Below the pieces are notes generated by a model. It had not been told where the DNA came from. It saw only the letters and a list, made by a program, of their open reading frames with translations, and made no database searches. The position numbers and the translations under genes are program-made. Shown one piece after another: positions 1 to 33,763 of a stretch of DNA of 44,364 nucleotides; position 1 is the stretch's first letter; each line of letters starts with the position of its first letter. The DNA comes from a virus. The stretch is from the IMG/VR virus record IMGVR_UViG_3300024268_000128. One strand, 5' to 3'.

Positions 1-127
1 ATCATCAATGAAGGCGATTATGTAACGGATTTGGGCTATGTGGGTAAGACCGTAGAGGGCAAGCCCATCATCATTGTGTTTGACAATGCGCTGTGTACCA
101 GCGGCCTTGAACTGGAAGGCAAGAACA
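1..127. repeat. Terminal direct repeat, identical to 44238-44364 (circular-assembly overlap or terminal redundancy)
   Basis: Read directly: bases 1-127 (atcatcaatgaaggcgatt...ggcaagaaca) recur exactly at 44238-44364. The unique length is therefore 44237 bp. Confidence 0.95.
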
Positions 128-228
128 AGGAAGCGGCTGTGCCGAAGTTCACCTTTGAATGCTTTGCAGACCTCAGCCCCGAAGCTGATACTCTGCCTTG
201 GCATATCTACTATCCGACTGAAGCCTAA
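1..228 (+). CDS. Major tail protein, C-terminal part (continues the ORF starting at 43872 across the circular junction)
   Basis: Position 1 is in frame with the ORF starting at 43872 once the 127-bp overlap is collapsed, and the stop is at 226-228. The gene sits after the connector genes and before the chaperone pair, as in typical siphovirus synteny. The joined product is about 197 aa. Confidence 0.8.
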   Translation: MINEGDYVTDLGYVGKTVEGKPIIIVFDNALCTSGLELEGKNKEAAVPKFTFECFADLSPEADTLPWHIYYPTEA

Positions 229-233
229 CAAAC

Positions 234-267
234 AGGGCGGGGGCGTTTGCTCCTGCCCTTACTTTTT
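234..267 (+). terminator. Intrinsic terminator-like hairpin after the major tail gene
   Basis: An 11-bp stem (agggcggggc / gctcctgccct, two G-U pairs) with loop gttt, followed by tacttttt. Confidence 0.5.
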
Positions 268-281
268 AAGGAGGAACGAAC

Positions 282-677
282 ATGGAAAAGACCTATACTA
301 TGCGCAGTCTGAATGCAAATGACCTGTTCGCAATGATGCGTATTATCAACAAGATTGGCATCAATGAAGTAAAGAAGATGTTTTCTTCTGCTGAGTTGAA
401 AAAGCTGCTTGCTGATACCATGAAAGACGGCAAAGTTGACGATAACGCTGCAAATGCAGTCGGTATGCAGGTGATGATTGAGCTTGCCTGTCTGGTAACC
501 AGCCACATCCCCGACTGTCAGAACGAAATCTATGATTTCATGGCTGGCCTTACTGGCATGAAGGTAAAGGACATTGCAAGCCTTGACATGATCGTATTCG
601 TGGAAATGGTCATGGATGTGTTCAAAAAGCCGGAATTTAAGGATTTTTTTCAGCGTCTTGTCGGATTGCTCAAGTAG
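282..677 (+). CDS. Tail assembly chaperone (gpG-like)
   Basis: 131-aa ORF with AAGGAGG RBS, immediately upstream of the tape measure. A slippery T7 run lies near its 3' end and the -1 frame is open beyond it. Confidence 0.8.
   Translation: MEKTYTMRSLNANDLFAMMRIINKIGINEVKKMFSSAELKKLLADTMKDGKVDDNAANAVGMQVMIELACLVTSHIPDCQNEIYDFMAGLTGMKVKDIASLDMIVFVEMVMDVFKKPEFKDFFQRLVGLLK
644..650 (+). other. -1 programmed ribosomal frameshift slippery heptamer T TTT TTT
   Basis: Zero-frame codons are gat ttt ttt cag. The -1 frame is open from 641 to the stop at 986-988. This is the canonical G/GT chaperone arrangement. Confidence 0.7.
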
Positions 678-988
678 GGGATTTAAGGTTTATTGACCTT
701 GTTTTCCAGCGTTACGCAAGCCCCATGCAGTTACTTGACAGTATGATCCTGACGCATCGACTTTCTGAATTTGTTGATAAGGTGATTGACCTGTACAACG
801 AAGAAAAGAAAGAAGAAATGTTGTGGGATGTTTGGCTGTTCCGGGTGCATGACAAATCCTATGCGGATTTTGTGGCAAGCGTGGACGATAGCAAGAGGGA
901 TAAACCCACAGAGCAAGAGACAGCGGACATTGTAAAGGAATCAAGGGGTATTTGGTTAAACTTCAAAGCAGCACCACAAGCGGAATGA
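650..988 (+). CDS. Tail assembly chaperone frameshift extension (gpT part of a gpGT-like fusion, joined to 282-650 by a -1 shift)
   Basis: Open -1 frame downstream of the T7 slippery site. There is no convincing RBS for the internal Met at 725. The sequence (EEMLWDVWLFRVHDKSYADFV) resembles T-segments of Firmicutes phages. Confidence 0.65.
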   Translation, partial: SASCRIAQVGDLRFIDLVFQRYASPMQLLDSMILTHRLSEFVDKVIDLYNEEKKEEMLWDVWLFRVHDKSYADFVASVDDSKRDKPTEQETADIVKESRGIWLNFKAAPQAE

Positions 989-1027
989 TAGGCGTTTTGA
1001 CCCTTCCTAAAACGGGAGGGGTGAAGC
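982..1027 (+). promoter_or_regulatory. Conserved leader element, copy A (GGAATGATAGG..TTTTGACCC..hairpin over the SD)
   Basis: Shares GGAATGATAGG, a T-run, TGAYCCC and a purine-rich SD with copies at 11446-11497 and 20345-20396. CCCTTCC (1001-1007) can pair with GGGAGGG (1014-1020), which is the SD of the GTG start at 1028. Confidence 0.5.
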
Positions 1028-2764
1028 GTGGAACTATTTAGATTACTTGGCACAATAGCCATTGAAAACGAACAGGCCAACAGGGCATTGGATGATACCG
1101 CAAACCAAGCGGAGGATACCAACGCCAGAACCAATACAGCCCTTGACGGTATCGGACGGGCTGCGCTTGGACTGGGCAAAATGGTGGTTGGTGCTGGTGT
1201 TGCTTTGGGCGGCGCATGGATTGCAGCCATTGAAGGTACAAGAGAATACCGGGCGCAAATGGGGCTATTGGATAGTGCCTTTCAGGCATCCGGGCATTCG
1301 TCTACAGAAGCAAAGAACACCTATTCAGAACTGAATGCGGTGCTTGGTGATACCGAACAGGCCGTAGAAGCTGCGCAACATATTGCACTGATAGCTGATA
1401 ACGAAAAGGAAATGAACACCTTAACGGAGATTGGCACGGGCATTTTTGCCACATACGGTGCAAGCCTTCCCCTTGAAGGGTTGTTTGAAGCGGTCAATCA
1501 CACGGCTTCCCTTGGTGAAGTGCAAGGCTCCCTTGCGGATGCGCTGGAATGGTCAGGTATCACGGTTGACGATTTCAACGCTCAACTTGAGAAATGCACC
1601 ACTGAGGAAGAACGGCAAGACCTGATCATGAAAACGCTGAAAGACACCTACGGGGATGCAGCTACACAGTATCAGGCAACAAACCGGGATGTGATGGAAG
1701 CCCGGAAAGCGCAGGAACGGCTAACGGATGCTTTTGCGGAGTTTGGGCGGGTTGGCGAGCCTATTCTAACGGTAGTCAAAAACGCTGTTGCTGATATGGT
1801 AACGGCTGCTATCCCCCACCTTGAAAACCTGATAAAAAAGGTCAAGGACGCAAAGAAATGGATGCAGGACAACAAAAGCACGGTTGACAAATGGAAAGCG
1901 GCCATCGTTGGTGCTGCTGCATCGGCAGCGTCCTTTGTTGTGATTCTGAAATGGTCATCCATCATGAGCAAGGCAAAGGCAGCGATAATTGGCGTTAGAA
2001 CGGCTATTTTGCTGCTCAATGCGGCAATGAAGGCAAATATTATAGGCTTGATTGTAAGCCTTGTTATCGGCCTTGTAGCGGCGTTTATAACGCTCTGGAA
2101 GAACAATGAGAGCTTCCGCAACTTCTGGATCAAACTTTGGGACAAGATTAAATCTTCCTGTTCATCTGCTGTCAAGTGGATCAAAGACAAATTCAATGAC
2201 CTAAAAGGCGTTGTATCCAATGTGGGAAAGTGGTTCGGAGATATTAAGAAATCCATATCAGATAAGATTGACGGCGCATGGCAAGCAGTGAAAAAAGCGA
2301 TTGACAAAATCAAAGGGCTGTTCCCGCTAAGTATTGGCAAGATTTTCAGCAATTTCAAGATACCGAAAATCAGTGTCAGCGGCGGCAAGGCTCCCTATGG
2401 TATCGCTGGCAAAGGCAAGCTCCCGTCCTTTGATGTAAAGTGGAATGCGGACGGCGTTATCTTCAACAAGCCAACCATCTTCAATACCCGGCAAGGCTTA
2501 CAGGGTGTAGGCGAAGCTGGGGCAGAAGTTGTATCGCCTGTATCTAAGCTGATGGAATATGTCACGGTTGCTGTAAAGAATGAGAATGGCAACCTTGGCA
2601 GAATCATCATAGAACAGAATGAGCTTTTGCGGGATTTGCTACGCCAGATCATGCCCCGTGATATTACCCTTGATGGAAATGCACTGGTTGGGCAGTTGCT
2701 TCCTGCGGTGGATACCGGGCTTGCTGACAGGCTGGTATATGCCCAGCGTGGGAACGTGCGATAA
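1028..2764 (+). CDS. Tail tape measure protein, copy 1
   Basis: 578 aa, directly after the G/GT chaperones. The N-terminus (MELFRLLGTIAIENEQANRAL) and C-terminus (GQLLPAVDTGLADRL) are TMP-like, with a central hydrophobic block. GTG start with GGGAGGGG SD. Confidence 0.85.
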   Translation: MELFRLLGTIAIENEQANRALDDTANQAEDTNARTNTALDGIGRAALGLGKMVVGAGVALGGAWIAAIEGTREYRAQMGLLDSAFQASGHSSTEAKNTYSELNAVLGDTEQAVEAAQHIALIADNEKEMNTLTEIGTGIFATYGASLPLEGLFEAVNHTASLGEVQGSLADALEWSGITVDDFNAQLEKCTTEEERQDLIMKTLKDTYGDAATQYQATNRDVMEARKAQERLTDAFAEFGRVGEPILTVVKNAVADMVTAAIPHLENLIKKVKDAKKWMQDNKSTVDKWKAAIVGAAASAASFVVILKWSSIMSKAKAAIIGVRTAILLLNAAMKANIIGLIVSLVIGLVAAFITLWKNNESFRNFWIKLWDKIKSSCSSAVKWIKDKFNDLKGVVSNVGKWFGDIKKSISDKIDGAWQAVKKAIDKIKGLFPLSIGKIFSNFKIPKISVSGGKAPYGIAGKGKLPSFDVKWNADGVIFNKPTIFNTRQGLQGVGEAGAEVVSPVSKLMEYVTVAVKNENGNLGRIIIEQNELLRDLLRQIMPRDITLDGNALVGQLLPAVDTGLADRLVYAQRGNVR

Positions 2765-2767
2765 AAA

Positions 2768-2800
2768 AGAGGGACGGCGGTTGCCGTTCCTCTTTGTTGT
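2768..2800. terminator. Bidirectional intrinsic terminator between convergent genes
   Basis: Stem agagggacggc / gccgttcctct with loop ggtt. An A-run lies upstream and ttgttgtt downstream. Confidence 0.65.
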
Positions 2801-3258
2801 TAAAATCCAAGGCCTTTGTATGGCGAAAAGGTGAGCGTATCACCTGTAAATTGAAGTGTTTGCCCTTCTTCAAGGTCAAGTTTTCCAATGTTAGTTGAAG
2901 GTGTTACGTTGTAAGTAGCAACAAGGCTTCCAGATGGAGAATAAATGTACATCAAGGCGAAAAACGTTCCTGCGCTTTTAACTGTATACGCACCAACCGG
3001 GATGTCTTTGCCGACTGTATATTGTCCGGGTGGTACAGTTGTTTCCTTTTCCGGGTTTACAATCCCTAATGGTTGCAGTCCTCTGCGTTCCATTTCGATT
3101 TTTGCATATTCATATAATGCAACAAGATTTTCGTCTGTGTGATTAGCAAACATTGTCTTTGCTTCTTCCTGCAAATCTGCGTATGTCTTAGCAAAAGCAC
3201 AAGGAACGAAAAGCATAACAACCAACAAAACAACAAGGAAACGTGATGCATTTTTCAT
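2800..3258 (-). CDS. Secreted protein of unknown function (moron; signal peptide)
   Basis: 152 aa on the opposite strand to the whole tail operon. Strong RBS (AAGGAGGTAGAAAACATG). The N-terminal signal peptide MKNASRFLVVLLVVMLFVPCAFA-KT suggests an AFA-K cleavage site, and the lipobox is not canonical. Confidence 0.8.
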   Translation of the reverse strand: MKNASRFLVVLLVVMLFVPCAFAKTYADLQEEAKTMFANHTDENLVALYEYAKIEMERRGLQPLGIVNPEKETTVPPGQYTVGKDIPVGAYTVKSAGTFFALMYIYSPSGSLVATYNVTPSTNIGKLDLEEGQTLQFTGDTLTFSPYKGLGF

Positions 3259-3279
3259 GTTTTCTACCTCCTTTTTTCC

Positions 3280-3308
3280 ATTTTATGAACAGAACCAAAT
3301 ATAGGCAA
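3280..3308 (-). promoter_or_regulatory. Sigma-A-type promoter for the reverse-strand secreted-protein gene
   Basis: On the minus strand: TTGCCT, 17 nt, TAAAAT, about 20 nt upstream of the RBS. Confidence 0.55.
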
Positions 3309-3354
3309 TGTTTGAAATGGAACGATTCAGCACCACAAAAGGAAGGTGAACGAA

Positions 3355-5130
3355 ATGACAGAAGTTTTCAAGCTGCTTGGCACAATCGCCATTGATGCAA
3401 GCGGCGTTGAAGCCACGTTAAACGATACAAGCGAAAAAACATCTGTTTTTTCGGAGAAGGTACAAAAACATTTTAGAAATATAGCCGCCACGGCTGCGCT
3501 TGTGTTTTCGCTGGATAAGGTGAAGGATTTTGCAAATGGTTGTGTAGAAGCGTATGCAACCATTTCGGCAGAAGAATCTGCCTTTGAACAGATCATGGGT
3601 GATTACTCTGACAATGCACAAGCGAAGATGCAGCATATTGCAGACCAAACGGGCGTTGTTACAAGCAGATTAACGCCATACATGACTTCGTTGACAAGCA
3701 AATTCAAGGGGCTTGGCTATGGCATTGATGAAGCAACTGATTTAGCGTCCGATGGCTTGCTAATGGCTTCTGATGCAGCAGCTTTTTGGGATCGTTCACT
3801 GGACGATTCTATGAGCCACTTAAACAGTTTTATCAACGGCAGTTATGAGGGCGGTGAAGCAATCGGCCTGTTTGCCAATGATACGCAGATGGCACAACGG
3901 GCATTGGAACAAGGGTTGATTGGCGATACAAAGGAATGGTCACAGCTTGACGAAGCAACGAAACAGTTTGCACGTTTGAACGAAGCAAAGCGGCAATTTG
4001 CAGAATCCGGCATAACGGGTCAGGCTGAAAGAGAAGCTTGGTCGTATGCTAACCAGATGCAGAACCTTGAAAGCCTGTGGACACGTTTCCAAGCAATCGT
4101 AGGTCAACCAATTCTGGAAGAAGTGCTTTTGCCTATCGTTCAAAAGCTGTCTGAATTTTTGCAATGGTGTCAAGACAATCCAGAAGTGCTTGAAAAAGTG
4201 TTCGGAAAACTGGGCGAGATTGCCGGAGAGGTTTCCGGCACGTTTTTTGACGGTGCTATTGAAGTTTTCAAGTGGATTGTCGAGAACGAAGGCGCACTAA
4301 CTGGAACACTAACAGCAATCGCACTTGCGTTTGCTGGCATTGGGCTTGCCACTCATCCTATCCTGACTGCCCTTTCGGCTATCGCTGGATTTATCATGTG
4401 GATGGCTGGGACTTATGACGAGCGACACGAAGAATTTATTGCTGGAATTGATGAAAACAAGCCCATTGCAGAAAGGAACGCTGGTAAGTATGCCGGGTGG
4501 ACGGATGCGCAGAAAGATGCTGCATACGATTACCTGTATGCATATGATGGCGGCTTTGATACAACTCCCGAAGTCGAAGCCATGAAAGCGGCTGGGCTTT
4601 CTCAGGCTGCAATTGATGAGTTTAGAAACGATGTATCTACCGCCCTTTCAGAAGGTGATTACAGCATTACCATTGAGGATACATGGTTTGACGAAACAGC
4701 GGAAACGGAGCTACAAGGCCAGCTTGATGAAATGGGGCTTGAAGCAACGGTAAGCCTTGTTCCTGACTATTCGGGTTTGGAAACATATGTGAACAGCGGC
4801 GGTACGGTGATGCCCAGCGCAGACGGTAGCCACGCAGACGGCCTAGACCGTGTTCCTTTCGATGGGTACAGAGCAATCCTTCACAAAGACGAAGCTGTTT
4901 TGAATGCTACCAACGCTTCTGTTTGGCGCAATGGTGGCGGCATGGGCGATACAAGCCGTTTGGAAGCTAAACTGGATGGTCTTATGTCAATTATGAGCCA
5001 AGTCGTAGCCAACACTGCAAACGGTCATCAGGTAGTGTTGGAAAGTGGCGTAATGGTTGGACAAATGCTCCCGGCGATTGATGCGGGGCTTGGTGCTATT
5101 GCAACCCGCAAAGGAAGGAGGAATGGCTAA
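3355..5130 (+). CDS. Tail tape measure protein, copy 2 (divergent paralogue)
   Basis: 591 aa from the ATG at 3355 (SD GGAAGGTG 7 nt upstream). The N-terminus MTEVFKLLGTIAIDASGVEATL parallels copy 1 and the C-terminus GQMLPAIDAGLGAI parallels copy 1. It also has a central hydrophobic block. Confidence 0.85.
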   Translation: MTEVFKLLGTIAIDASGVEATLNDTSEKTSVFSEKVQKHFRNIAATAALVFSLDKVKDFANGCVEAYATISAEESAFEQIMGDYSDNAQAKMQHIADQTGVVTSRLTPYMTSLTSKFKGLGYGIDEATDLASDGLLMASDAAAFWDRSLDDSMSHLNSFINGSYEGGEAIGLFANDTQMAQRALEQGLIGDTKEWSQLDEATKQFARLNEAKRQFAESGITGQAEREAWSYANQMQNLESLWTRFQAIVGQPILEEVLLPIVQKLSEFLQWCQDNPEVLEKVFGKLGEIAGEVSGTFFDGAIEVFKWIVENEGALTGTLTAIALAFAGIGLATHPILTALSAIAGFIMWMAGTYDERHEEFIAGIDENKPIAERNAGKYAGWTDAQKDAAYDYLYAYDGGFDTTPEVEAMKAAGLSQAAIDEFRNDVSTALSEGDYSITIEDTWFDETAETELQGQLDEMGLEATVSLVPDYSGLETYVNSGGTVMPSADGSHADGLDRVPFDGYRAILHKDEAVLNATNASVWRNGGGMGDTSRLEAKLDGLMSIMSQVVANTANGHQVVLESGVMVGQMLPAIDAGLGAIATRKGRRNG

Positions 5131-5552
5131 TGAGGGGCGTTACCTTTGGCATTAAACACAGTTACCGGGCGTTTGGGCTGCTGCTGAAAGAACGGCCTTA
5201 CATCAGCCCACCCGAACCGAAGACAAAGCTGATCGAAGTACCGGGAAGCGATACGGTCATTGACCTGACCGAGAGTTTGACAGGTAAAGTCCATTACGGG
5301 ATGCGAGAGGGAAAATTTGAATTTTTCGTTGCTGGCGGCAGATCGAAATGGTCTGCCGTTTATGCTGCCATTCTGAATGAGCTACACGGCAAGCGGCTGA
5401 AAATCGTATTGGACGATGACCCCAATTATTATTGGATAGGCCGTATTGCTGTGAACGAATGGGAGAGCGACAAAAAGACAGCAACTATTGTCCTTTCTGC
5501 CCAGCTTGAGCCTTACAAGTACCTTCGTTATGGCGAAGGGAGGTCTTTGTAA
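5130..5552 (+). CDS. Distal tail protein (Dit-like), copy 1, short form
   Basis: 140 aa with a TAATG overlap onto TMP2. Shares FG..HSYR, IDLTE, LHGKRLKIVLDDDP.YYW.GR and EPYKY with the ORF at 7752. Confidence 0.75.
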   Translation: MRGVTFGIKHSYRAFGLLLKERPYISPPEPKTKLIEVPGSDTVIDLTESLTGKVHYGMREGKFEFFVAGGRSKWSAVYAAILNELHGKRLKIVLDDDPNYYWIGRIAVNEWESDKKTATIVLSAQLEPYKYLRYGEGRSL

Positions 5553-7321
5553 TGGGCTATACAATCCATGCGGACGGTGAGTTGATGTTTTCAACCACGG
5601 CTGAGGAAGTGGCGCACATTGCGCTGAATCCAAAGCTGACACTTGATATTAACGCTGCCGGGTCACTCAGTTTCGTCCTTCCTCCCGGCAACGTGAAAAA
5701 TGGAAAACTGAAAAACCTTAAAAACATTATTACAGTTAAGCAGGACGGCGAACAGCTTTTTCGTGGAAGAGTAACAGAAACGGAAAAGGACGGCTTCAAC
5801 CAGCAAACAACCTACTGTGAAGGGCAAAAGAGCTTTTTACTTGACAGCCAGATTGCACCATACAGCTATAGCGGCACGGTGCATGGACTGTTTAGCAAAC
5901 TGATTGCCAACCATAACGCAAAAGTGGAAGCACCTATGCGGTTCACGGTTGGCACAGTTGATGCTGTTTCCGCATCCGAAACGGTAACGGTGGAAAGCAA
6001 ATACTATACAGACACAAACGGCGAAATTGAAAGCAAGCTGCTTGGTGCATACGGTGGCTATTTGCGGGATAGAACCGTTGGCAATACACATTATCTGGAC
6101 TGGGTAAAACAGTACGGCGGTAATAATTCGCAGGAAATCAAGTTTGCCGTGAACTTGCTTGAACTGAGGGACAAAATCAGCGCAGAAGATGTGTTCACGG
6201 TGCTGTATCCACTTGGTGCTGTGCAGATCAATGAAAACGGCGAGCAAACAGACCCGTTGACGGTTGCCAGTGTCAATAACGGGCTTGAGTACATCCAAGA
6301 TGACGCTGCCGTTGCACTGTATGGCAGGATTGAAAGAAGTTACACATGGAACCACATTGAAAGCGCATCGGAGCTTTTGCAGAAGGGGCGGGAACATCTG
6401 AAAACAGGTGTTGCTTTGCAAACCTTGACGCTAAAGGCCATTGATATGCACTTTGTAGATGGTGACATTAGCAGAATCAAGGTTGGGGACAGGGTACACA
6501 TTGTATCTGATCCTAACGGCCTTGATTTGTGGATGGTGTGCAGCCGGATTGTTATTGACCTGCTGAACCCGGAAAATACAGAATACACCTTTGGCGAAAA
6601 GCCCCGTGCGCTTACGGATAACGTTGTTGACACGGATGAAGAAGTTGACAACATGTCCGGGCGCAGAGGTGGCGGCGGTGGACGAAGAAGCGTCAATGAT
6701 GAACTGCAAGAAATCCTCCGCTGGGCAAGGATCAGCGTGGACGAAGCCAACGCACAAATCCTGTTGTCTGCTGGTGAGATTAACAACCTGACCAACCGTA
6801 CCAGCACGGCTGAAATTGCCATTGATGGCTTGAATGCTGCTGTTATCACGAAGGCAAGTATTGAAACGGTGGATGCACTGACCGGGCGGGTAAGCACGGC
6901 AGAAGCTACATTGACGGTACAGGCCAACCAGATCAGTTCCAAGGTGAGCAAGGACGGTGTTATTTCCTCCATCAATCAGACGGCAGAAAGCATTACCATC
7001 CAAGCAAACAAGGTTAATCTTTCCGGCTATGTTACTGCCAGCACATTGGCGGCAGAAATCGCCACAATCAATAAATTTTTCAGCGGCGTTGCAGAAGCAT
7101 CGGTGTTGAAAGCAACAATGGTCAACTGTACGGGTACGCTTTTGTACCAGAATACCGCTGTTAGCTGGAAGGAAAAGCGGTATGTAACATCCGTCAACAT
7201 AACGCAAGAAAAAAACATTGTATCCGTCAAGGATGTAAACGGGAATACCGTTGTCATCAATTATGTAACAAGCGTTAGCGCAAATCCTTCTACAAGCTCT
7301 ATTTCTTATCTTGGCAACTAA
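5552..7321 (+). CDS. Tail tip protein (Tal / prophage tail endopeptidase-like), copy 1, with coiled-coil C-terminal half
   Basis: 589 aa following Dit. The N-terminal approximately 130 aa align with the ORF at 8387 (IITV.QD..LFRGRV, CEG..SFLLDS, PY.YSGTV). A glycine/arginine linker (RRGGGGGRR) precedes a long repetitive coiled-coil-like region. Confidence 0.75.
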   Translation: MGYTIHADGELMFSTTAEEVAHIALNPKLTLDINAAGSLSFVLPPGNVKNGKLKNLKNIITVKQDGEQLFRGRVTETEKDGFNQQTTYCEGQKSFLLDSQIAPYSYSGTVHGLFSKLIANHNAKVEAPMRFTVGTVDAVSASETVTVESKYYTDTNGEIESKLLGAYGGYLRDRTVGNTHYLDWVKQYGGNNSQEIKFAVNLLELRDKISAEDVFTVLYPLGAVQINENGEQTDPLTVASVNNGLEYIQDDAAVALYGRIERSYTWNHIESASELLQKGREHLKTGVALQTLTLKAIDMHFVDGDISRIKVGDRVHIVSDPNGLDLWMVCSRIVIDLLNPENTEYTFGEKPRALTDNVVDTDEEVDNMSGRRGGGGGRRSVNDELQEILRWARISVDEANAQILLSAGEINNLTNRTSTAEIAIDGLNAAVITKASIETVDALTGRVSTAEATLTVQANQISSKVSKDGVISSINQTAESITIQANKVNLSGYVTASTLAAEIATINKFFSGVAEASVLKATMVNCTGTLLYQNTAVSWKEKRYVTSVNITQEKNIVSVKDVNGNTVVINYVTSVSANPSTSSISYLGN

Positions 7322-7333
7322 GGAGGGAAAACC

Positions 7334-7519
7334 GTGCAGGAAATTGTTAAAAGCCTGATTATCACGCTAAACAAAATCAGCGTGAACGGTGAGGAAAACA
7401 TGGATATGCTTTTGGGCTGTATCCAAACGCTGAAAAACCTATTGGAAACCATCAAGGAAGTACAGGAAAAGGGGGCTATGGAAAATGACGCTGAACACCA
7501 GCAAGGGGAAAACGTATGA
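7334..7519 (+). CDS. Hypothetical small protein
   Basis: 61 aa, GTG start with GGAGGG SD. Lies between the two tail-tip gene sets. Confidence 0.45.
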   Translation: MQEIVKSLIITLNKISVNGEENMDMLLGCIQTLKNLLETIKEVQEKGAMENDAEHQQGENV

Positions 7520-7748
7520 GGTTGATTGGGTGGATGTTGCATCCCTGACGAGCGGACAACTGTTCGCCCAGTTGCGGGATGACCGCCCACTGCATGAGAT
7601 TGCAGAAGAATTTGACGGCCTTGAATGGCTGGAAAGGGAATCCGATACCCAAGGGAACAAGAGGTTTGAGGGTTTCAATCGCCTGATTGGCCTTTCCCGA
7701 ACGGCTGCGAACGGAGCCGTGCAGCTTACCCTGTGTAAGGAGGGCTGA
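7485..7748 (+). CDS. Hypothetical protein
   Basis: 87 aa, ATG with AAGGGGG SD. Overlaps the previous ORF by 35 nt in another frame. The stop is followed by TAG, then the GTG start of the next gene. Confidence 0.55.
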   Translation: MTLNTSKGKTYEVDWVDVASLTSGQLFAQLRDDRPLHEIAEEFDGLEWLERESDTQGNKRFEGFNRLIGLSRTAANGAVQLTLCKEG

Positions 7749-7751
7749 TAG

Positions 7752-8387
7752 GTGAAGGGAATCGCTTTCGGGGGCTTGCACTCATACAGGGACTTGAATC
7801 TGATCCTGAGCAAGAAAGAAATCGGCGCACCACCTGTCAAGGAAAACAAACTGGAAATCGGAGGGGCAGACGGCTCCATTGATTTGACAGAGGTTTTCGG
7901 CAGGCCGAATTATGGTGATGTGACACACAAATTCACATTCACCAGCATAACCCGGAATGATTCCCTAACTAAATACAGCATGGTTAAAAACGCCCTGCAT
8001 GGTCAAAAGCTGCGGATCATCCTTGACGATGACCCCGGATTTTACTATGTGGGGCGGTGCTATGTATCCAGCTATACCGATGAAAAAGGCATAGGCACAA
8101 TTACGGTTGACTGTGACTGTGAGCCGTACAAGTACAAACTAAGCAAAACCGTTGTAACACGGGCTATAGACGGCACAGAAACAATTACATTGACAAACGG
8201 GCGCAAACGTGCAGTGCCAACCATCACAACCACAGCAGCTATGACCATTGCCTTTGGTGATGGCGTATGGACGAACAGCGCAGGAAGCTACATCCTGCCA
8301 GACTTGGAACTGGTACAAGGGGATAACGTTGTTACGGTGACAGGTACGGGCAGTATCACTTTCGCATGGCAGGAAGGTGATATGTAA
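7752..8387 (+). CDS. Distal tail protein (Dit-like), copy 2
   Basis: 211 aa, paralogous to 5130-5552 (roughly 40 percent identity by eye) with an extra C-terminal domain. Confidence 0.75.
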   Translation: MKGIAFGGLHSYRDLNLILSKKEIGAPPVKENKLEIGGADGSIDLTEVFGRPNYGDVTHKFTFTSITRNDSLTKYSMVKNALHGQKLRIILDDDPGFYYVGRCYVSSYTDEKGIGTITVDCDCEPYKYKLSKTVVTRAIDGTETITLTNGRKRAVPTITTTAAMTIAFGDGVWTNSAGSYILPDLELVQGDNVVTVTGTGSITFAWQEGDM

Positions 8388-9805
8388 TGTACCGGGTGTA
8401 TTGTGACGGCTTAACCCTGTATAACGATAAGTTAGAAAACTTGAAGCTGCTTAACCCTGCCGTGGAGCTTGAGGAAAACAAAACAGGTTCCTTTACATTT
8501 GGACTGCTGCCAGATCATCCTTGTTATAACCTGATTAACAAGCTGAAAAGCATTATCACGGTTCATCAGGATGATTATCTGCTGTTTAGGGGCAGGGTGC
8601 TGGATGACACTATTGGATGGCATAAGCAAAAGACGGTTACCTGTGAAGGCGAACTGTCTTTTTTGCTGGATAGCATCCAGCGACCTTACGACTACAGCGG
8701 CACGGTGGCTGGGTTCCTTGAATTGCTTATCACCCGGCACAATGAGCAGGTGGAAGCGTCAAAGCGGTTCGCTGTGGGAAATGTGACCGTTACAGATGCA
8801 AATGATTACATTGTACGTTCAAACATAGACCATACCGACACATGGACGGAGCTTCAAAAGAAGTTGATTGACCTGCTGGGCGGCTATATCGTGGTTCGCC
8901 ATGAAGGGAAAATCAACTATATTGATTACTTGCAAGATATTAACCTGCTATCCTCTCAGGCTATCACCTTTGGGCGCAACCTGCTTGACTTGAAACGCAT
9001 CCGAAAAGGGGCTGACATTGCAACGGCGGTCATTCCCCTTGGTGCAAAACTGAGGGATGCAGAGGACAAGGAAACCGATACCCGGCTGACCATCGAAAGC
9101 GTGAACAATGGGCTTGATTACATCGTTGATGAGGATGCACAAGCACAGTATGGGTCTATTGTCAAGACGGTCACTTTTGACGATGTAACGGAGCCACAAA
9201 ACCTGTTGACCAAGGGGAAAGCACATCTTGCTGAACTTGTCAACCTGCCAGAAACCATTGAGCTTACGGCGGCTGACCTTGCTACAGTGGACACGGCTTT
9301 TTCATCCTTCCACCTTGGAACACAGGTACGGGTGACAAGCCAGCCCCACGGCATAAATCAGCTTTTCCGGGTTAGTAAGCTGTCAATCTCACTGCTGAAT
9401 CCGGCTGCAAATAAGCTGACCTTGGGCGGGTTGCTGGACACATTCTCATCCAAAACAAGCAAAACGATTGTTCACATACCAAAAGATGGACGGGATGGTC
9501 AAGATGCTGTAACCTTGCGGATTGATTCCAGCCGGGGAACAGTATTTAAAAACAGCGAGGTTTCCACCACTCTAAAGGTTGTTATCTTCAAGGGTGGGAA
9601 AACCATCACGGATGCGGCTTCTATGATGGCTGAGTTCGGGAGCAATGCCTATCTGGAATGGCAATGGCAACGCATGGGGGAAGAAACCTTCGGGACGATA
9701 TTGGCAACTGACAGCCGTATATCTGACGAAGGTTTTTCACTGTCGCTCTCACCAAGCGATGTGGATACAAAGGTTGTTTTCAAATGTCAACTGGTAACGG
9801 AATGA
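8387..9805 (+). CDS. Tail tip protein (Tal-like), copy 2, with collagen-like and Ig-like C-terminal module
   Basis: 472 aa with an ATGTAATG overlap onto Dit2. The N-terminus is paralogous to 5552-7321. The C-terminal segment DGRDGQDAVTLRIDSSRGTVFKNSEVSTTLKVVIFKGG is repeated in the next ORF. Confidence 0.75.
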   Translation: MYRVYCDGLTLYNDKLENLKLLNPAVELEENKTGSFTFGLLPDHPCYNLINKLKSIITVHQDDYLLFRGRVLDDTIGWHKQKTVTCEGELSFLLDSIQRPYDYSGTVAGFLELLITRHNEQVEASKRFAVGNVTVTDANDYIVRSNIDHTDTWTELQKKLIDLLGGYIVVRHEGKINYIDYLQDINLLSSQAITFGRNLLDLKRIRKGADIATAVIPLGAKLRDAEDKETDTRLTIESVNNGLDYIVDEDAQAQYGSIVKTVTFDDVTEPQNLLTKGKAHLAELVNLPETIELTAADLATVDTAFSSFHLGTQVRVTSQPHGINQLFRVSKLSISLLNPAANKLTLGGLLDTFSSKTSKTIVHIPKDGRDGQDAVTLRIDSSRGTVFKNSEVSTTLKVVIFKGGKTITDAASMMAEFGSNAYLEWQWQRMGEETFGTILATDSRISDEGFSLSLSPSDVDTKVVFKCQLVTE

Positions 9806-9827
9806 TTACAAAGAAAGGAGATTATCT

Positions 9828-10472
9828 ATGGCAATCAAATCGGTAGACCAAATTTCCATCGTTGATGTAACGGACGCTTATTCCGTTATTCTGACTTCTG
9901 AAACGCATGCTTTCTTAGGTTCGACCAATGCAGCCAAAGCGGGTTCGACAACCACACAGATTGTTGCTTTGCAGGGTGCAACACAGGTAGCTTGCAGTGT
10001 TACGGTATCGGAAATCACAAAGCCAGCAGGCGTGACGGTTTCTTCTGATAGCAACGCCACATCGCCTACTTTGACTATCTCCGTTACCACGAGCGTTACA
10101 ACGGGCGGTGTCATCAAAATTCCTGTCCACATCGGGGATATTACCATTACAAAGGAATTTACCTTCACGATTGCCTTTACTGGCTCCACGGGTGCGAAGG
10201 GTGCGACTGGTGATGCTGGTGCTGATGCAATCACGCTGTCCATCACATCCAGCAATGGCACAATCTTCAAAAACAGTGCCATTGAAACGGTGCTGACTGC
10301 CCATGTGTACAAAGCTGGTGCGGAACTGAATGCAACCCAAATTGCAGCACTTGGCACTATCAAATGGTACAAGGATGGTGCTGAAACGGCGGTTGGAACG
10401 GGTGCAACGCTGACCATTGATGCAGGGGATGTGAGCCACAAAGCAAGCTATGTAGCACAGTTGGAGGGATGA
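9828..10472 (+). CDS. Tail fibre / baseplate-associated structural protein (Ig-like repeats)
   Basis: 214 aa. Contains GAKGATGDAGADAITLSITSSNGTIFKNSAIETVLTAHVYKAG, homologous to the C-terminus of Tal copy 2. Confidence 0.6.
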   Translation: MAIKSVDQISIVDVTDAYSVILTSETHAFLGSTNAAKAGSTTTQIVALQGATQVACSVTVSEITKPAGVTVSSDSNATSPTLTISVTTSVTTGGVIKIPVHIGDITITKEFTFTIAFTGSTGAKGATGDAGADAITLSITSSNGTIFKNSAIETVLTAHVYKAGAELNATQIAALGTIKWYKDGAETAVGTGATLTIDAGDVSHKASYVAQLEG

Positions 10473-10475
10473 CCT

Positions 10476-11378
10476 ATGGCTGTAAAAGCGGCGGGGCAGA
10501 TTACGCTTTCAAGCGTGGTCGATGTGCTTGCAACATATCGGTATTATCTGCTTCAGTCATCCACGGCGGCTATCCCTTCAAAACCGACAACCTTTCCACC
10601 TGCAAGTGCGTGGGATGATACCGAACCGGGATATACCGAAGGCAGCACCAACAGCCTGTACACGGTGGATTGCACGGTGTTCAGTGATGAATCCTTCCTG
10701 TATTCGTCCGTGTCCTTGTCATCCAGTTATGAAGCGGCAAAAGCGGCTTATAACAGGGCTACAAATGCCCTTCTGCATACGGTGGTACAGAGTGCAACAG
10801 CACCAACGGCAACTACTTATATGTGGCTGGATACAAGCGCAGAACCGCCAGCACTGAAGCGGTATGACACGGAAACGGCGGCATGGGTGGTTGTTAATGA
10901 TGCATCTGAAATTGTTTACAATCTGGAACAGAATCTTGAATCATCCATCACCAAAAGTGCAGAGGACATCACGGCGAAGGTTGCGGAAAGTTATTCTTTG
11001 AAGGAAGATACGGAAGCCCTTGTTTCGGAAGTCAGCACACAACTGAGCTTGACAAAGGGCAGCTTCGACATCCAATTTGAGCAGTTCGGCGCAGACATTG
11101 CGGCTGTTGCGGCTGGAACGGATGCAGAATTTGAAGAAATCCGCAAATTTATTAGATTTGTGGACGGTAAGATTCTGCTGGGTGAGGTTGGTAACGAGCT
11201 TGAATTGGTGATAGCCAATGACCGCATATCCTTCTTGCAGGATGGTGCGGAAGTGGCTTATTTCAGCAATCGAAAACTGTATGTTACAGATGCGCAATTT
11301 TTGCACAGCCTGCAACTGGGCAGCTTTGCATTTATGCCACGGGCAAATGGCAATCTCTCTTTCAAAAAATCTAACTAA
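10476..11378 (+). CDS. Tail fibre / minor structural protein
   Basis: 300 aa in the tail module. The N-terminus (YRYYLLQSSTAAIPSKPTT..WDDTEP) is typical of Firmicutes prophage tail proteins. The C-terminal half looks coiled-coil. Confidence 0.6.
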   Translation: MAVKAAGQITLSSVVDVLATYRYYLLQSSTAAIPSKPTTFPPASAWDDTEPGYTEGSTNSLYTVDCTVFSDESFLYSSVSLSSSYEAAKAAYNRATNALLHTVVQSATAPTATTYMWLDTSAEPPALKRYDTETAAWVVVNDASEIVYNLEQNLESSITKSAEDITAKVAESYSLKEDTEALVSEVSTQLSLTKGSFDIQFEQFGADIAAVAAGTDAEFEEIRKFIRFVDGKILLGEVGNELELVIANDRISFLQDGAEVAYFSNRKLYVTDAQFLHSLQLGSFAFMPRANGNLSFKKSN

Positions 11379-11445
11379 AAAAGGCTTTATTTAGTTAGCG
11401 TAGTTTGCGGCTTAATTAAAGGAAATCGCCTTTTGCTTTATTTAC

Positions 11446-11497
11446 GGAATGATAGGTCATTTTCTTGACCCCACGAAAATGATAAAGGGGCGGGAGC
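11446..11497 (+). promoter_or_regulatory. Conserved leader element, copy C
   Basis: GGAATGATAGG, then TTTT, then CTTGACCCC, then AAGGGGCGGGAG immediately before the ATG at 11498. CCCC (11469-11472) can pair with GGGG (11487-11490). Confidence 0.45.
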
Positions 11498-13561
11498 ATG
11501 GCAGCATCAGGCACTATACAGCAAGCAATCAGGACGGGCTATCGGTTGCAAATTGCATGGGAGGTCACCTCTCAATCAGTCGCAAACAACACATCCAGCG
11601 TTACAGCAAAGGTGCAGCTTGTTTCCACGGGCAGCAGTTACACCATCAACAGCAGCGCAAGCAAAAGCGGCAGTTTGACCATCAACGGGACGAAATACAG
11701 CTTTACCTTCACGGCTGCATTGTCTGGCAACCAGACCAAAACCATCTATACAAAAACGGTCACGGTTGCCCATGCATCAGACGGCACGAAAACCTGTGCT
11801 TTTTCGGCAACGGCGGGTATCAATGTTACCCTGTCGGGGACTTACTACGGCAACATTACGGCAAGCGGAAACGGCACGTTTAACACCATTGCAAGGGCAT
11901 CCAGCATTAGCAGCGTGACAAGCTCCGTAAGCGTGAACGGAACCAATGTCGTTACGGTCAACATCAGCCGTAAAAGTGACAGCTTTACACATACCGTTGT
12001 ATTCAGCTTTGGAAGCTATTCTAAGACCAATACAAGCGTAGGGACAAGTACATCCTATGCCATACCCACAAGCTGGTTAAACGCCATTCCTAACGCTACC
12101 AGCGGCACAGCAAAGGTGACTGTCACCACCTATTCTGGAAGTACCAAGATAGGCAGCGCAGTATCCAAAAACTTTACGCTTACGGTTCCGGCATCCGTTG
12201 TGCCTACCATCGGTAGTGTAGCCGTAAACGACACGACAACCCATCAGGCCACGTTTGGAAACATGGTGCAAAGCAAAAGCAAACCGAAGTGGACGATAAC
12301 AGCAAGCGGGGCGTATAGTTCCACCATCAAAACCTACAAGACGGAGTTTGAAGGGAAAAGCTATTCCGGTGCAACGCCTACTGGATCAACTATCACGGGC
12401 AGCGGAACGGTAACGGCGAAAATCACGGTAACGGATAGCCGGGGCAGGACTGCAACCACGAACAAAACATGGACAGTGGTTGCCTATACTGCGCCCAAAA
12501 TCATTAGCTTTCAGGGCTTCCGTTGCCTTGTGGACGGAACCGAAAACTACGAAGGTACATATCTGAGTGCTGCTGTCAACTTTTCTGTTTCGGCAGTAAA
12601 TAATAAGAATACAAGCAGCTATGTCATTGAATACAAGCTGCAAACAGCCACGGCTTGGACAACCTTGACAAGCGGGAGCGTTTATGCATTGAACGATACC
12701 ATCATCAGCGCATCCGGGGCTTTTGGCGTGGATAACAGCTTTGACATTCGCCTATCCGTGACTGATTCTTTCGGCACGGTCAGAAGCACGTTTGAGATAC
12801 CAACGGCATTCACCCTGCTGGACTTCAACAAGTCAGGCCGGGCTTTAGCCTTTGGCAAGGTGTCAGAGTTGACAGAGGGTATAGAATTTGCTTTGCCAAC
12901 GGTATTCAGCCATGCAGAAACGCCCAATTCCCCGATTTACCTTCAGACTGGGCAAGACCTCAATGACCTTCTGGAACCGGGGTATTATGCCATTCCAAAT
13001 ACAGCAGTCAGCACTACGCTATTAAACAAACCTTGGGCAGCGAATGCAACTGGCGGCGTGTATGTGCTGGTTGAAGGTGACGGCATGGGCAAGGTTCAGA
13101 TTGCGCACAGGCTTTCCAAGGATGACGGGGAAATATACGAACGAAGCTATTATCAAAGCGAATGGGGAAATTGGTACAGGGTACACGGTGGCAGAGGGAA
13201 AATCCTTTGGTCTGGCGGCTATTATATGACAGCAAGCCACACTATAACCCTATCGGAAAAGGTCAGCCAGCAGCCGTCCGGCATCGTGCTTGTGTTTAGC
13301 CGTTATTCTGGCGGTGCAGCGCAAAACTATCATTGGAACGAATTTTTTGTATCCAAAGAGTGGGTCAGACGGCATCCGGGAACGGGTCACTCATTCATGA
13401 TGACGAATGATGGCCTGTTTGGCCTTATGGCTTCAAAGTATCTATACATCCATGATGACAAGATTGGTGGTAACGATGTAAACGGCGAATCGGGAACAGG
13501 GGCAAGCGGTATCATTTACAACAATGCAGGTTTTGTCCTGCGCTATGTTATCGGTGTATAA
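11498..13561 (+). CDS. Large tail host-recognition protein (DUF859-like N-terminal repeats)
   Basis: 687 aa and the last large ORF of the tail operon. The N-terminal half is Ser/Thr-rich and beta-rich (SLTINGTKYSFTF, TAKVTVTTYSGSTKIG), with a distinct C-terminal globular part. Confidence 0.6.
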   Translation: MAASGTIQQAIRTGYRLQIAWEVTSQSVANNTSSVTAKVQLVSTGSSYTINSSASKSGSLTINGTKYSFTFTAALSGNQTKTIYTKTVTVAHASDGTKTCAFSATAGINVTLSGTYYGNITASGNGTFNTIARASSISSVTSSVSVNGTNVVTVNISRKSDSFTHTVVFSFGSYSKTNTSVGTSTSYAIPTSWLNAIPNATSGTAKVTVTTYSGSTKIGSAVSKNFTLTVPASVVPTIGSVAVNDTTTHQATFGNMVQSKSKPKWTITASGAYSSTIKTYKTEFEGKSYSGATPTGSTITGSGTVTAKITVTDSRGRTATTNKTWTVVAYTAPKIISFQGFRCLVDGTENYEGTYLSAAVNFSVSAVNNKNTSSYVIEYKLQTATAWTTLTSGSVYALNDTIISASGAFGVDNSFDIRLSVTDSFGTVRSTFEIPTAFTLLDFNKSGRALAFGKVSELTEGIEFALPTVFSHAETPNSPIYLQTGQDLNDLLEPGYYAIPNTAVSTTLLNKPWAANATGGVYVLVEGDGMGKVQIAHRLSKDDGEIYERSYYQSEWGNWYRVHGGRGKILWSGGYYMTASHTITLSEKVSQQPSGIVLVFSRYSGGAAQNYHWNEFFVSKEWVRRHPGTGHSFMMTNDGLFGLMASKYLYIHDDKIGGNDVNGESGTGASGIIYNNAGFVLRYVIGV

Positions 13562-13588
13562 AAATCAAAAGAAAAGGGATGAGGGGCT

Positions 13589-13834
13589 ATGGAAACCATT
13601 ATTTCTGCGGCTATCACGGGTGGACTTGCTTTAATTGGCGTTATCATCACGACCATGCAAAGCAGCAGAAAAATCGAAAGGAAACTGGAAATCCATCAGG
13701 CCGTGACTGACCAAAAGATTGAGGATTTGACACGGGAAGTAAGAGAACATAATAACTTCGCAAGGCGAATGCCTGCCCTTGAACAGAAGGTGGAAGGCAT
13801 TGATGAAAAAATCAATATCTTGCATAAGCAATAA
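13589..13834 (+). CDS. BhlA/UviB-like holin-family protein (N-terminal TM helix plus coiled coil)
   Basis: 81 aa with TM segment ETIISAAITGGLALIGVIITT followed by a charged helical tail. It sits at the end of the tail operon where lysis genes usually lie. Confidence 0.55.
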   Translation: METIISAAITGGLALIGVIITTMQSSRKIERKLEIHQAVTDQKIEDLTREVREHNNFARRMPALEQKVEGIDEKINILHKQ

Positions 13835-13838
13835 AAAG

Positions 13839-13868
13839 AGCCGGGGAACTAACCCCGGCTTCTTTTTT
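13839..13868. terminator. Bidirectional intrinsic terminator
   Basis: AGCCGGGG aactaa CCCCGGCT, flanked by an A-run upstream and TCTTTTTT downstream. Lies between convergent genes. Confidence 0.75.
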
Positions 13869-14559
13869 ATGGCAAGCGGATGACGAAAAAATCATCTTCG
13901 TTCGCTGTATATCCAGCCTGATTATTTGCGTGATAGTATATCCTATTGGCAATAATGTCTGCGGCACGAATAAGCGTTTTTTTGCCAGAATTGCAGTAAT
14001 GCAAGTTTACTATCTTGAGTTCCGGGAAGATTGGCGGGTAGAACGTGCTGAAATATTCATTATAAGTGCCGTTCTTAAATTCTTGCTCAAGCCCTTCACG
14101 GAGTTCATAACATCCGTTTGTTGCCGTTGTGTGTTCATCCACATAGAAATTGAGCGTTTCAACTTTATTGGGATCAATGATTCCTTCCCGAATAAGTTTT
14201 TGAAATAGGCGTTTTACTGCAATCTTATATGCATAATCTTGATAGCGTTGCTTATCTTTTTTGCTTGTAAATATACGATCAAGCACGTTCTGCTGGTCAA
14301 TGATTACACCAAATCGGTACTTGCTATTAAGAGAACGAAAGAGCTTTCTTCTGTTTTTGTTATTAAGTGAAGATGCTTTGGCTTCCTGAGTTCTTTCCAT
14401 CTTTGCACTTGTTTTAACATCATTTTCAGCCTTGATGTATTTTCGTGCGCATTCGTCACGTTCCTCTTTGGAAAGAAACATGATTCCACCAAAGACAAAA
14501 TAACGATTGTGGGCTTTATCGAAAACGCCAGATTCGTCAGAATAGATGTAAATATCCAT
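13867..14559 (-). CDS. DUF3800-like protein (moron; candidate accessory or defence gene)
   Basis: 230 aa from the Met at 14559. The N-terminal MDIYIYSDESGVF...YFVFGG matches the DUF3800 hallmark (IY.DESG). The 291-aa extension to 14742 lacks an RBS and contains a terminator hairpin. Confidence 0.65.
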   Translation of the reverse strand: MDIYIYSDESGVFDKAHNRYFVFGGIMFLSKEERDECARKYIKAENDVKTSAKMERTQEAKASSLNNKNRRKLFRSLNSKYRFGVIIDQQNVLDRIFTSKKDKQRYQDYAYKIAVKRLFQKLIREGIIDPNKVETLNFYVDEHTTATNGCYELREGLEQEFKNGTYNEYFSTFYPPIFPELKIVNLHYCNSGKKTLIRAADIIANRIYYHANNQAGYTANEDDFFVIRLP

Positions 14560-14576
14560 AAGCCAATGCCTTTCGT

Positions 14577-14602
14577 AAACAAAAAAGCCGCTTTGCAGCG
14601 GC
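14577..14602 (-). terminator. Intrinsic terminator 18 nt upstream of the DUF3800-like start codon (possible attenuator)
   Basis: On the minus strand: GCCGCT gcaa AGCGGC followed by TTTTTTGTTT. Confidence 0.55.
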
Positions 14603-14685
14603 CCCGTGTCCGGCGATAGCACATACCGCTTAAACTTCCGTTCGGTTGCACAGGTGTACAGTGGGATGATGTCCCCTGCGAGAGT

Positions 14686-14714
14686 ATAATACGCCAAATG
14701 AACGAGAAAAACAA
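14686..14714 (-). promoter_or_regulatory. Candidate promoter for the DUF3800-like gene leader
   Basis: On the minus strand: TTGTTT, 17 nt, TATTAT. Confidence 0.3.
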
Positions 14715-14745
14715 TGTACAGAATGGTAATAATGATGCACATGAA

Positions 14746-14776
14746 AAGCAGGGGATTGCTCCCCTGCTTCTTTTTT
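14746..14776. terminator. Bidirectional intrinsic terminator
   Basis: AAGCAGGGG attgct CCCCTGCTT, then CTTTTTT. Lies immediately 3' of the minus-strand gene ending at 14775. Confidence 0.7.
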
Positions 14777-15151: not shown

Positions 15152-15496
15152 AAACCTATCATCATTTGCGGTGACCTAAACGTTGCGGCAAGCGACATTG
15201 ACCTTAAAAATCCGAAGGCCAACCGAAACAATGCAGGGTTTACAGATCAGGAACGGGAAGCCTTTCAAAGTTTGCTTGGCAGTGGCTTTGTGGATGCGTA
15301 CCGCTATTTGTATCCTGATAAGGTCGAATATTCGTGGTGGTCTTATATGCGCAATGCAAGGGCGAATAATGCCGGATGGCGCATTGACTATTTTCTGGTG
15401 TCCGATTGGGCGGCAGACCGTATAAAGGAATGCCGGATTGATACGGACATTTACGGGTCAGACCATGCGCCCATTTCACTTGAGATAGACATCTAA
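15152..15496 (+). pseudogene. xth: Exodeoxyribonuclease III (Xth/ExoA) 3' fragment, about 115 C-terminal codons only
   Basis: KPIIICGDLNVAASDIDLKNPKANRNNAGFTDQEREAF...WWSY...GWRIDYFLVS...GSDHAPISLEI matches the C-terminal half of ExoIII-family nucleases. There is no N-terminal half, no ATG and no RBS. The 3' end overlaps the integrase 3' end by 21 nt. Confidence 0.8.
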
Positions 15497-33752: not shown

Positions 33753-33763
33753 GGGGTGAAACA

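Follow-up and report, generated by a model that had tools for sequence, protein, structure and literature searches.

A doubled tape measure–Dit–Tal set is the rule in a large siphovirus lineage

Introduction

The tube of a siphovirus tail polymerises on a complex of tape measure protein (TMP), Dit and Tal, and has one distal end; a single TMP, Dit ring and Tal trimer per siphovirus is the basis on which tails are annotated and host ranges predicted. In the tail of phage 80alpha there are three TMP, six Dit and three Tal copies, with the TMP C-terminus inside Tal (PMC7048315), and the N-termini of TMP engage the tail completion protein (PMC11661146). The tips of SPP1, TP901-1 and 80alpha have much in common with the locus described here: they draw on these three protein families, encoded in the order TMP-Dit-Tal-fibres by genes whose stop and start codons overlap, with an upstream pair of G/T tail-assembly chaperones, and the Dit fold is alike. 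Each of these phages, however, has a single set in its genome and a single TMP3-Dit6-Tal3 complex in its tail. By contrast, the tail operon (1-13561) of the virus record IMGVR_UViG_3300024268_000128, whose entire 44,364-nt sequence we call the window, has two sets, evidently nested, with a first Dit predicted to be a ring domain alone and Tal proteins in neither of which Pfam or PHROGs searches found a lysin (peptidoglycan-hydrolase) family; it would thereby challenge the one-set premise.

A preliminary description of the window had listed, in order, chaperones, TMP1, a reverse-strand gene, TMP2, Dit1, Tal1, two small open reading frames (ORFs), Dit2, Tal2 and fibres, and each of these ORFs lies where it had been placed. 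Comparing the locus with its relatives, we find nothing peculiar to this genome in the doubling, which a large lineage has as a rule. Judged by gene content across that lineage, TMP1, Dit2, Tal2 and their fibres form a constant outer set that encloses an exchangeable inner cassette of TMPx, Dit, Tal and fibres, TMPx being our name for the counterpart of TMP2 in relatives. We are evenly divided over whether these are two self-contained tail-initiation modules that, served by one tube protein and one chaperone pair, would give rise to two virion types.

Results

Two complete tail-tip sets in one operon

TMP1 (1028-2764, plus strand, 578 residues) lies directly downstream of the chaperone pair. 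TMP2 (3355-5130, plus strand) stands directly upstream of Dit1 (5130-5552, plus strand, 140 residues), its stop codon overlapping the Dit1 start, and is followed in turn by Tal1 (5552-7321, plus strand, 589 residues), Dit2 (7752-8387, plus strand, 211 residues), which is the Dit of the outer set, and Tal2 (8387-9805, plus strand, 472 residues). A mechanically made ORF list starts TMP2 at GTG 3346; we place its start at ATG 3355, which is preceded by the ribosome-binding site AAGGAAGGTG, and with this start the protein has the 591 residues originally reported.

Profile, pairwise and fold comparisons bear out the assignment of all six genes to TMP, Dit or Tal. TMP1 matches TMP families of PHROGs (phrog_58, E = 1e-32; phrog_991, E = 8e-26), TMP2 has a weak PHROGs match (phrog_8125, E = 7e-7), and TMPx proteins of relatives match Pfam PF20155 (TMP_3). 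Aligned to each other by BLASTP, TMP1 and TMP2 are 23% identical over 213 residues (E = 1e-4), with a second match at a C-terminal motif (10 of 22 residues, E = 6e-4). The motifs LLGTIAI, at the N-terminus, and VGQ.LPA.D.GL, at the C-terminus, occur in both, together with a hydrophobic block (residues ~289-359 of TMP1 and ~313-347 of TMP2), so that the shared ends and central block first noticed by eye are all present; in TMP1 the N-terminal motif reads MELFRLLGTIAI and the C-terminal one ALVGQLLPAVDTGLADR..RGNVR. Full N- and C-terminal motifs in each protein uphold the view that these are two complete genes rather than one split gene. Within genomes, the N-termini of TMP1 and TMPx showed no co-variation (permutation p = 0.57).

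Dit1 and Dit2 both match phrog_33 (E = 5.6e-11 and 5.3e-20, respectively) and are 40% identical over 131 residues (E = 2e-32), corresponding to the N-domain of Dit2. Tal1 and Tal2 match phrog_3558 (E = 7e-98 and 7e-127) and score almost equally against PF06605 (59.5 and 59.2 bits, for a cut-off of 31.3); they are 39% identical over 348 residues (E = 2e-70), and both pairs thus have the identity of about 40% that had been estimated by eye. Each Tal has a gp27-like hub N-domain (residues 1-360 of Tal1, 1-354 of Tal2), which in Tal1 is followed by a fibre-like C-terminal extension and in Tal2 by a module that recurs, as had been suggested, in the next ORF, which starts at 9828 (34% identity over 103 residues, E = 2e-11). 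A PDB sequence search with Dit1, Dit2, Tal1 and Tal2 returned no useful match.

At the DNA level, similarity between the two sets is confined to 35 nt of 77% identity (1031-1065 against 3361-3395) that encode the N-terminal TMP motif. The lack of any longer repeat indicates that the copies are old and divergent and neither recent nor made by assembly. A neighbour-joining tree of Tal N-domains agrees with the old divergence first proposed: the split between Tal1 and Tal2 is deeper than that between Tal2 and the Tal of distant single-set phages. In this tree the Tal2 clade includes single-set phages, while the Tal1 clade, among the loci sampled at the time, holds two-TMP phages only.

The two-set plan in relatives

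An architecture of this kind could be an artefact or a decaying remnant: two strains may have been assembled into a chimera, or a recent recombination may have left a scar in which one set is dead. The window comes from a metagenomic assembly, and its ends overlap by 127 nt. Eleven contigs, however, encode exactly this TMP1 protein, and in an ENA assembly made independently (44,378 bp) the products follow one another in an unchanged order (578, reverse-strand 152, 591, 140, 589, 61, 87, 211, 472, 214, 300 and 687 residues). Dozens of divergent relatives follow the same plan on IMG/VR, GTDB, NCBI, JGI, ENA and Logan contigs from more than 20 datasets, including two GTDB metagenome-assembled genomes. 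We found no repeats at the cassette junctions, and all ORFs are intact. Ratios of non-synonymous to synonymous substitution (dN/dS), computed by the Nei-Gojobori method for several pairs of relatives, span 0.05-0.26 across TMP1, Dit1, Tal1, Dit2, Tal2, the 87-residue ORF and the fibres (TMP1, 0.08-0.19; Tal1, 0.13-0.22; Tal2, 0.06-0.10), indicating that neither set is decaying and that both are under purifying selection. As far as sequence data can show, agreement among independent assemblies made with other assemblers excludes the chimera against which the preliminary description had cautioned, and we give the artefact account next to no credence.

Of the 39 distinct TMP1-type genes in a census, 37 had downstream sequence, and every one of these was followed by a second TMP-like ORF. 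At least 9 kb of downstream sequence was available for 22 loci, about 20 of which had two Dit-Tal cassettes; L119 was ambiguous and L112 had a single tip. The TMP pair is thus the invariant feature, and the doubling of Dit and Tal is nearly universal, with L112 the exception. The TMP1 family is large: at least 120 database clusters reach 68% identity, and their proteins, with few exceptions, have 574-582 residues. JGI labels several TMP1 homologues (P0003, P0024, P0026, P0072 and P0078) 'gas vesicle protein', an apparent mis-annotation.

Among deposited phages the plan is rare. Megablast of window positions 1-12000 against them gave no match, and a protein-level search found the two-set plan in a single deposited phage record, MT835521.1, an unannotated human-gut contig. 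A Tal homologue occurs at 146 places in 145 deposited phage records, a count blind to any second Tal of another, unrelated family; two copies of this Tal family are therefore almost never found there. The preliminary description was right that two sets stand where siphoviruses usually have one, but the feature belongs to a large lineage and not to this genome in particular; as for synteny, single-set sisters do exist, whereas the closest lineage commonly has two sets, although we found no published description of a two-TMP or two-tip-set siphovirus in the full-text literature, that on Heliusvirales included. Metagenome-assembled genomes that contain relatives bear the host labels Oscillospiraceae and Clostridia, apart from one probably mis-binned Bacteroidaceae contig; among the contigs scanned, double-set hosts were metagenome-assembled genomes only, with no cultured lysogen.

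Inner cassettes are exchanged within a constant outer set

Single-set sister phages (for example IMG/VR L034, L052 and L064) have the same portal, capsid, tube and chaperone families as the window, and one TMP of 617-1145 residues followed by Dit2-type, Tal2-type and DUF859 fibre genes with nothing between them. The N-half of this sole TMP resembles TMP2, which is 40-60% identical to it over that half, and its C-half resembles that of TMP1. The converse, a single set with a Dit1/Tal1-type tip, is found in prophages recovered by a wider search and in one of the isolate Lachnospiraceae bacterium TWA4 (L206), which has one TMP, a Dit of 234 residues and a Tal 43% identical to Tal1. Since the Dit2/Tal2 tip stands alone in the sister phages and the Dit1/Tal1 tip alone in the TWA4 prophage, each tip type would seem to be competent by itself.

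The slot between TMP1 and Dit2, empty in the single-set sisters, is occupied in two-TMP phages by at least four unrelated Dit/Tal cassette families, which supports the original reading of 2765-7750 as an inserted module. The cassettes are of the Dit1/Tal1 type, a type with proteins of 287 and 341 residues, a type with proteins of 272-277 and 436-670 residues, and a Dit2/Tal2/DUF859-like type; for the second and third types one representative each (L016 and L171) was profiled, giving a Dit of phrog_33 and, after it, a tail protein of phrog_538, and the other members were assigned by resemblance. Inner cassettes often have their own fibres or a pectate-lyase-like (depolymerase-like) protein.

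At its extreme C-terminus TMPx differs in class from one cassette family to the next, whereas the C-terminus of TMP1 (..LVG.L.PA.D..L.DR..H..RGN.R) is constant across relatives, as are Dit2 and Tal2. Within TMP2, the C-terminal 240 residues travel with Dit1-Tal1 while the N-half is swapped between relatives: residues ~350-591 are 94-100% identical to those of L204 and residues 1-300 only 20-30%, the matching N-half being found instead in L031. TMPx is the most mosaic gene in the operon, with 48-57% identity where its neighbours have 81-95%; this divergence reflects domain swapping, and we rejected uniformly fast evolution of TMP2. Recombination that exchanges cassettes could plausibly be anchored in the 35-nt stretch at the two TMP starts.

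Mantel tests over 17 genomes correlated the TMPx C-terminus with Dit1 plus Tal1 (r = 0.66, p = 0.0005) rather than with Dit2 plus Tal2 (r = 0.11), and the TMP1 C-terminus with Dit2 plus Tal2 (r = 0.26, p = 0.02) against Dit1 plus Tal1 (r = 0.17). That the TMPx C-terminus tracks its own Dit/Tal family, together with the complete motifs of both TMPs, led us to reject a split TMP acting in series. In the census TMPx ranges from 467 to 928 residues while TMP1 has 570-602, with one of 636. Two TMPs length-matched for a common lumen would fit the 578 and 591 residues of the window but are rejected by this range.

Predicted structure of Dit1

An AlphaFold (AF2) model of Dit1 was built from 38 homologues and had a predicted local distance difference test (pLDDT) score of 81. 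In a fold search against the PDB, in which all 140 residues were spanned, its best matches were solved Dits, namely those of TP901-1 (4v96), monocin, SPP1 (gp19.1, 2x8k), NF5 and 80alpha (6v8i), with a template modelling score (TM-score) of 0.64-0.74 normalised to the query. The model aligned to the N-terminal half only of these 240-270-residue targets (target TM-score ~0.41); Dit1 is accordingly predicted to consist of the N-terminal ring domain alone, with no C-terminal galectin-like domain. Lambda gpM (8iyk_E, 109 residues) was also among the matches, which indicates that ring-only Dits exist. The short form is widespread, with more than 100 database clusters of 140-144 residues, whereas single-set relatives with a Dit1-type N-domain have Dits of 234-242 residues. 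Dit2 has about 80 residues more than the ring domain, is 52-88% identical across relatives and is found in the single-set sister phages too.

The reverse-strand gene between the TMPs

Between the two TMPs lies a reverse-strand gene (2800-3258, minus strand) for a 152-residue protein with an N-terminal signal peptide, MKNASRFLVVLLVVMLFVPCAFA, preceded by a promoter-like site (3308-3280). A bidirectional intrinsic terminator (2768-2801; a shorter version is predicted on both strands), with an 11-bp stem, a GGTT loop, a preceding A-run and a following T-run, has the stop codons of TMP1 and of the reverse-strand gene on either side. The protein had no Pfam or PHROGs match; homologues of 26-37% identity occupy the same position in L007-9, L013, L046 and L119. 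We regard this predicted secreted protein as the product of a moron in the late operon and as a candidate for expression in lysogeny, possibly with a role in exclusion.

This gene has a bearing on a second account of the doubling, in which one module suffices and the second TMP, alone or along with its tip, is insurance, serving to evade TMP-directed superinfection exclusion or host defences, or as a spare cassette for recombination. Exclusion lipoproteins that target TMPs exist, as in Ltp of phage TP-J34. A gene for a predicted secreted protein between the TMPs of several relatives would suit such a history, as would the mosaicism of TMPx and the greater constancy of the TMP pair compared with the doubled Dit and Tal. 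Yet it is not TMPs alone but whole tips, with their own fibres, that are doubled and held under purifying selection, and the reverse-strand gene belongs to no family that we could match; we therefore consider insurance improbable as the explanation.

Alternative tips or a composite tip

Our favoured reading starts from the single distal end of the tube: together with two complete and separately exchangeable sets, it points to two alternative initiation complexes. The outer module would comprise TMP1, Dit2, Tal2 and the fibre proteins of 214, 300 and 687 residues; the inner module (~2765-7750), acquired and exchangeable, would comprise TMP2, Dit1, Tal1 and the two small proteins. Both complexes would use one chaperone pair, one tube protein and the same head-proximal proteins, and the N-terminal motif conserved between TMP1 and TMP2 is consistent with a common head-proximal partner. 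One infection would then yield a mixture of virions with either tip A or tip B, and so two receptor specificities. Taking 0.15 nm per residue, tail lengths would be nearly equal here (~87 nm for 578 residues and 89 nm for 591), while relatives with TMPs of ~578 and 467-928 residues would make tails of unequal length; for L046 (581 and 928 residues) and L006 (584 and 909 residues) the predicted lengths are ~87 and ~137-139 nm.

An inversion switch between the sets was rejected, there being no flanking inverted repeats: no long ones flank the cassettes in 1-14000. Among the ORFs of the genome that were scanned, the sole recombinase identified is a serine integrase of 527 residues. Without an inversion switch, co-production would be the default expectation. 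Co-expression, independent assembly and dual host range are what we infer from the comparative data.

A composite tail would instead place both TMPs and both Dit/Tal pairs in every virion, with stacked Dit rings or one set at the periphery and two TMP species per lumen; T4, which stacks gp48 and gp54 above its hub, offers a model for stacked rings. A bare 140-residue ring where stand-alone relatives have 234-242 residues would fit such a stack, and so would the end motifs common to both TMPs and the two loci, L112 and L015, in which two selected TMPs accompany one tip. The exchange of the inner cassette among unrelated Dit/Tal families beside a constant outer set is nevertheless hard to square with a co-adapted interface, and TMPx lengths of 467-928 residues against a constant ~578 argue against two TMPs in register in one lumen. 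Each tip type is, moreover, enough alone in other phages, and no solved siphovirus tip has two Tal trimers. The comparative data thus favour alternative tips over a heteromeric tip, and we judge a composite tail to be a poor prospect, less probable even than insurance.

Several observations weigh against two independent initiation modules. The correlation of TMP1 with Dit2 and Tal2 is weak, and that of TMPx with its cassette comes partly from physical adjacency. L112 and L015 are without Dit2-Tal2 (in L112, Tal1 is followed by fibres and then an endolysin), yet their TMP1 is under purifying selection (dN/dS 0.17), with the last 100 residues unusually divergent (30-36% identity). TMP1, retained in this way, would not be strictly dependent on the outer tip, and strict pairing of TMP1 with Dit2-Tal2 is weakened by these two loci and by the Mantel result. 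Dit1 is without the C-terminal domain that grips Tal in 80alpha, whereas the Dits of single-set relatives with the same N-domain have 234-242 residues. Finally, with the strong terminator at 2768-2801 downstream of TMP1, the genes beyond it may be expressed differently.

Fibres, small ORFs and the rest of the genome

The fibre or receptor-binding genes of the outer set lie at 9828-10472 (214 residues), 10476-11378 (300 residues) and 11498-13561 (687 residues, DUF859), all on the plus strand. The C-terminal parts of Tal1 and Tal2 resemble fibre or immunoglobulin-like (Ig-like) modules. Most relatives have a single 534-residue Tal2 equivalent to the Tal2 N-domain fused to the C-terminal 160 residues of the 300-residue ORF (window 8387-11378). 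The window genome, with L009, L111, L200 and L205, has an insertion that accounts for the Ig-like module on Tal2, for the 214-residue ORF, in which this module is repeated, and for the 300-residue ORF's new N-terminus. In L013 a NUMOD4/HNH homing-endonuclease gene (14330-14761) splits Dit2 from Tal2, and the start/stop overlap is lost.

The two small ORFs of the inner cassette (7334-7519, 61 residues; 7485-7748, 87 residues; both on the plus strand), a pair confirmed by a second, independent gene caller, overlap by 35 nt with the second in the +1 frame. The pair is kept downstream of Tal1 in many relatives (58/84, 63/90 and 58/90 residues), with dN/dS of 0.14-0.24. In its arrangement the overlap recalls a frameshift pair.

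The ends of the window are identical over 127 nt (1-127 and 44238-44364), indicating a circular assembly with a true length of 44,237 bp; assemblers run at k=127 leave an exact end repeat of this length on circular contigs. The window is the complete circular genome of a temperate siphovirus. A single gene encodes the major tail (tube) protein (197 residues, plus strand), running from 43872-44364 across the circular junction to ~226, as translated across the 127-nt overlap. It is followed by the single pair of G/T chaperones (plus strand; G at 282-677, the T frame open from 641 with an ATG at 725 and its end at 988), which matches phrog_1021, has a T7 slippery run at 644-650 and occupies the same position in all relatives. 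The operon ends at a terminator (13838-13861), directly past which a DUF3800 protein (291 residues, 13867-14742, minus strand) marks the start of the lysogeny region. The 527-residue large serine integrase is encoded at 15476-17059 (minus strand).

The genome also encodes TerL (32517-33752), an SPP1-type portal (35670-37130), a Mu-F-like protein and the major capsid protein (41393-42253). A probable endolysin (NlpC/P60 plus PG_binding_1, 39830-40654) lies within the head module, with the Mu-F-like gene and the scaffold gene on either side, and not downstream of the tail fibres; its slot holds an amidase or a CHAP/LysM lysin in relatives, and a holin in one case. Between terminase and portal, distant from the tail operon, 33740-35092 encodes a 450-residue protein that combines an alanine-zipper coiled coil with the C-terminal (baseplate/fibre) domain of T4 Gp10, a slot that carries other cargo in relatives (a CBM_5_12 protein; a metallophosphatase).

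Discussion

In its broadest form, our reading is that the temperate phages of gut and rumen Clostridia include an abundant lineage in which each genome routinely gives two kinds of virion, one with a conserved tip and one with a tip from an exchangeable slot, as bet-hedging dual host range; we hold this tentatively, at a little under an even chance. If true, phages would have a hitherto unrecognised means of combining two host specificities, which may help to explain related gut prophages in distant hosts. The device would act at tail initiation and not by fibre switching, and relatives with unequal TMPs would produce two tail lengths per lysate. It would offer a natural system in which to study cognate recognition among TMP, Dit and Tal and the tube protein's choice of initiator, and a ready-made cassette slot for tail-tip engineering. 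The genes concerned are unannotated or mis-named in deposited records, a warning for automated annotation.

Other phages widen or vary their adsorption by different means. In K1-5, phi92, CBA120 and RaK2, extra spikes or fibres on a single baseplate widen the host range; the window likewise has extra adsorption genes, but these phages are not known to duplicate TMP, Dit or hub. In TP901-1 and Tuc2009, self-cleavage of Tal gives mixed virion populations, with two tail tips in one burst; that heterogeneity arises by proteolysis of one product, whereas the window has two gene sets. The S/S' fibres of P1 are two alternative host-range determinants in one genome (bioRxiv 10.1101/2022.07.24.501295). 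The Mu G segment and P1 C segment resemble the window in encoding alternative host-range determinants in one genome and in having two virion types, which here would follow from the genes; Mu and P1, however, switch distal fibre genes only, through an invertase and inverted repeats, while the window doubles whole modules, TMP included, on the same strand. Close to the window, too, are the Clostridia single-set sisters and prophages (L034, L052 and L064, and L206 of TWA4), which have the same head, tube and chaperone families with one TMP and one tip. Measured against these systems, the parts of the locus are known families, and it is their conserved nested two-module organisation, with the virion dimorphism it suggests, that appears to be new.

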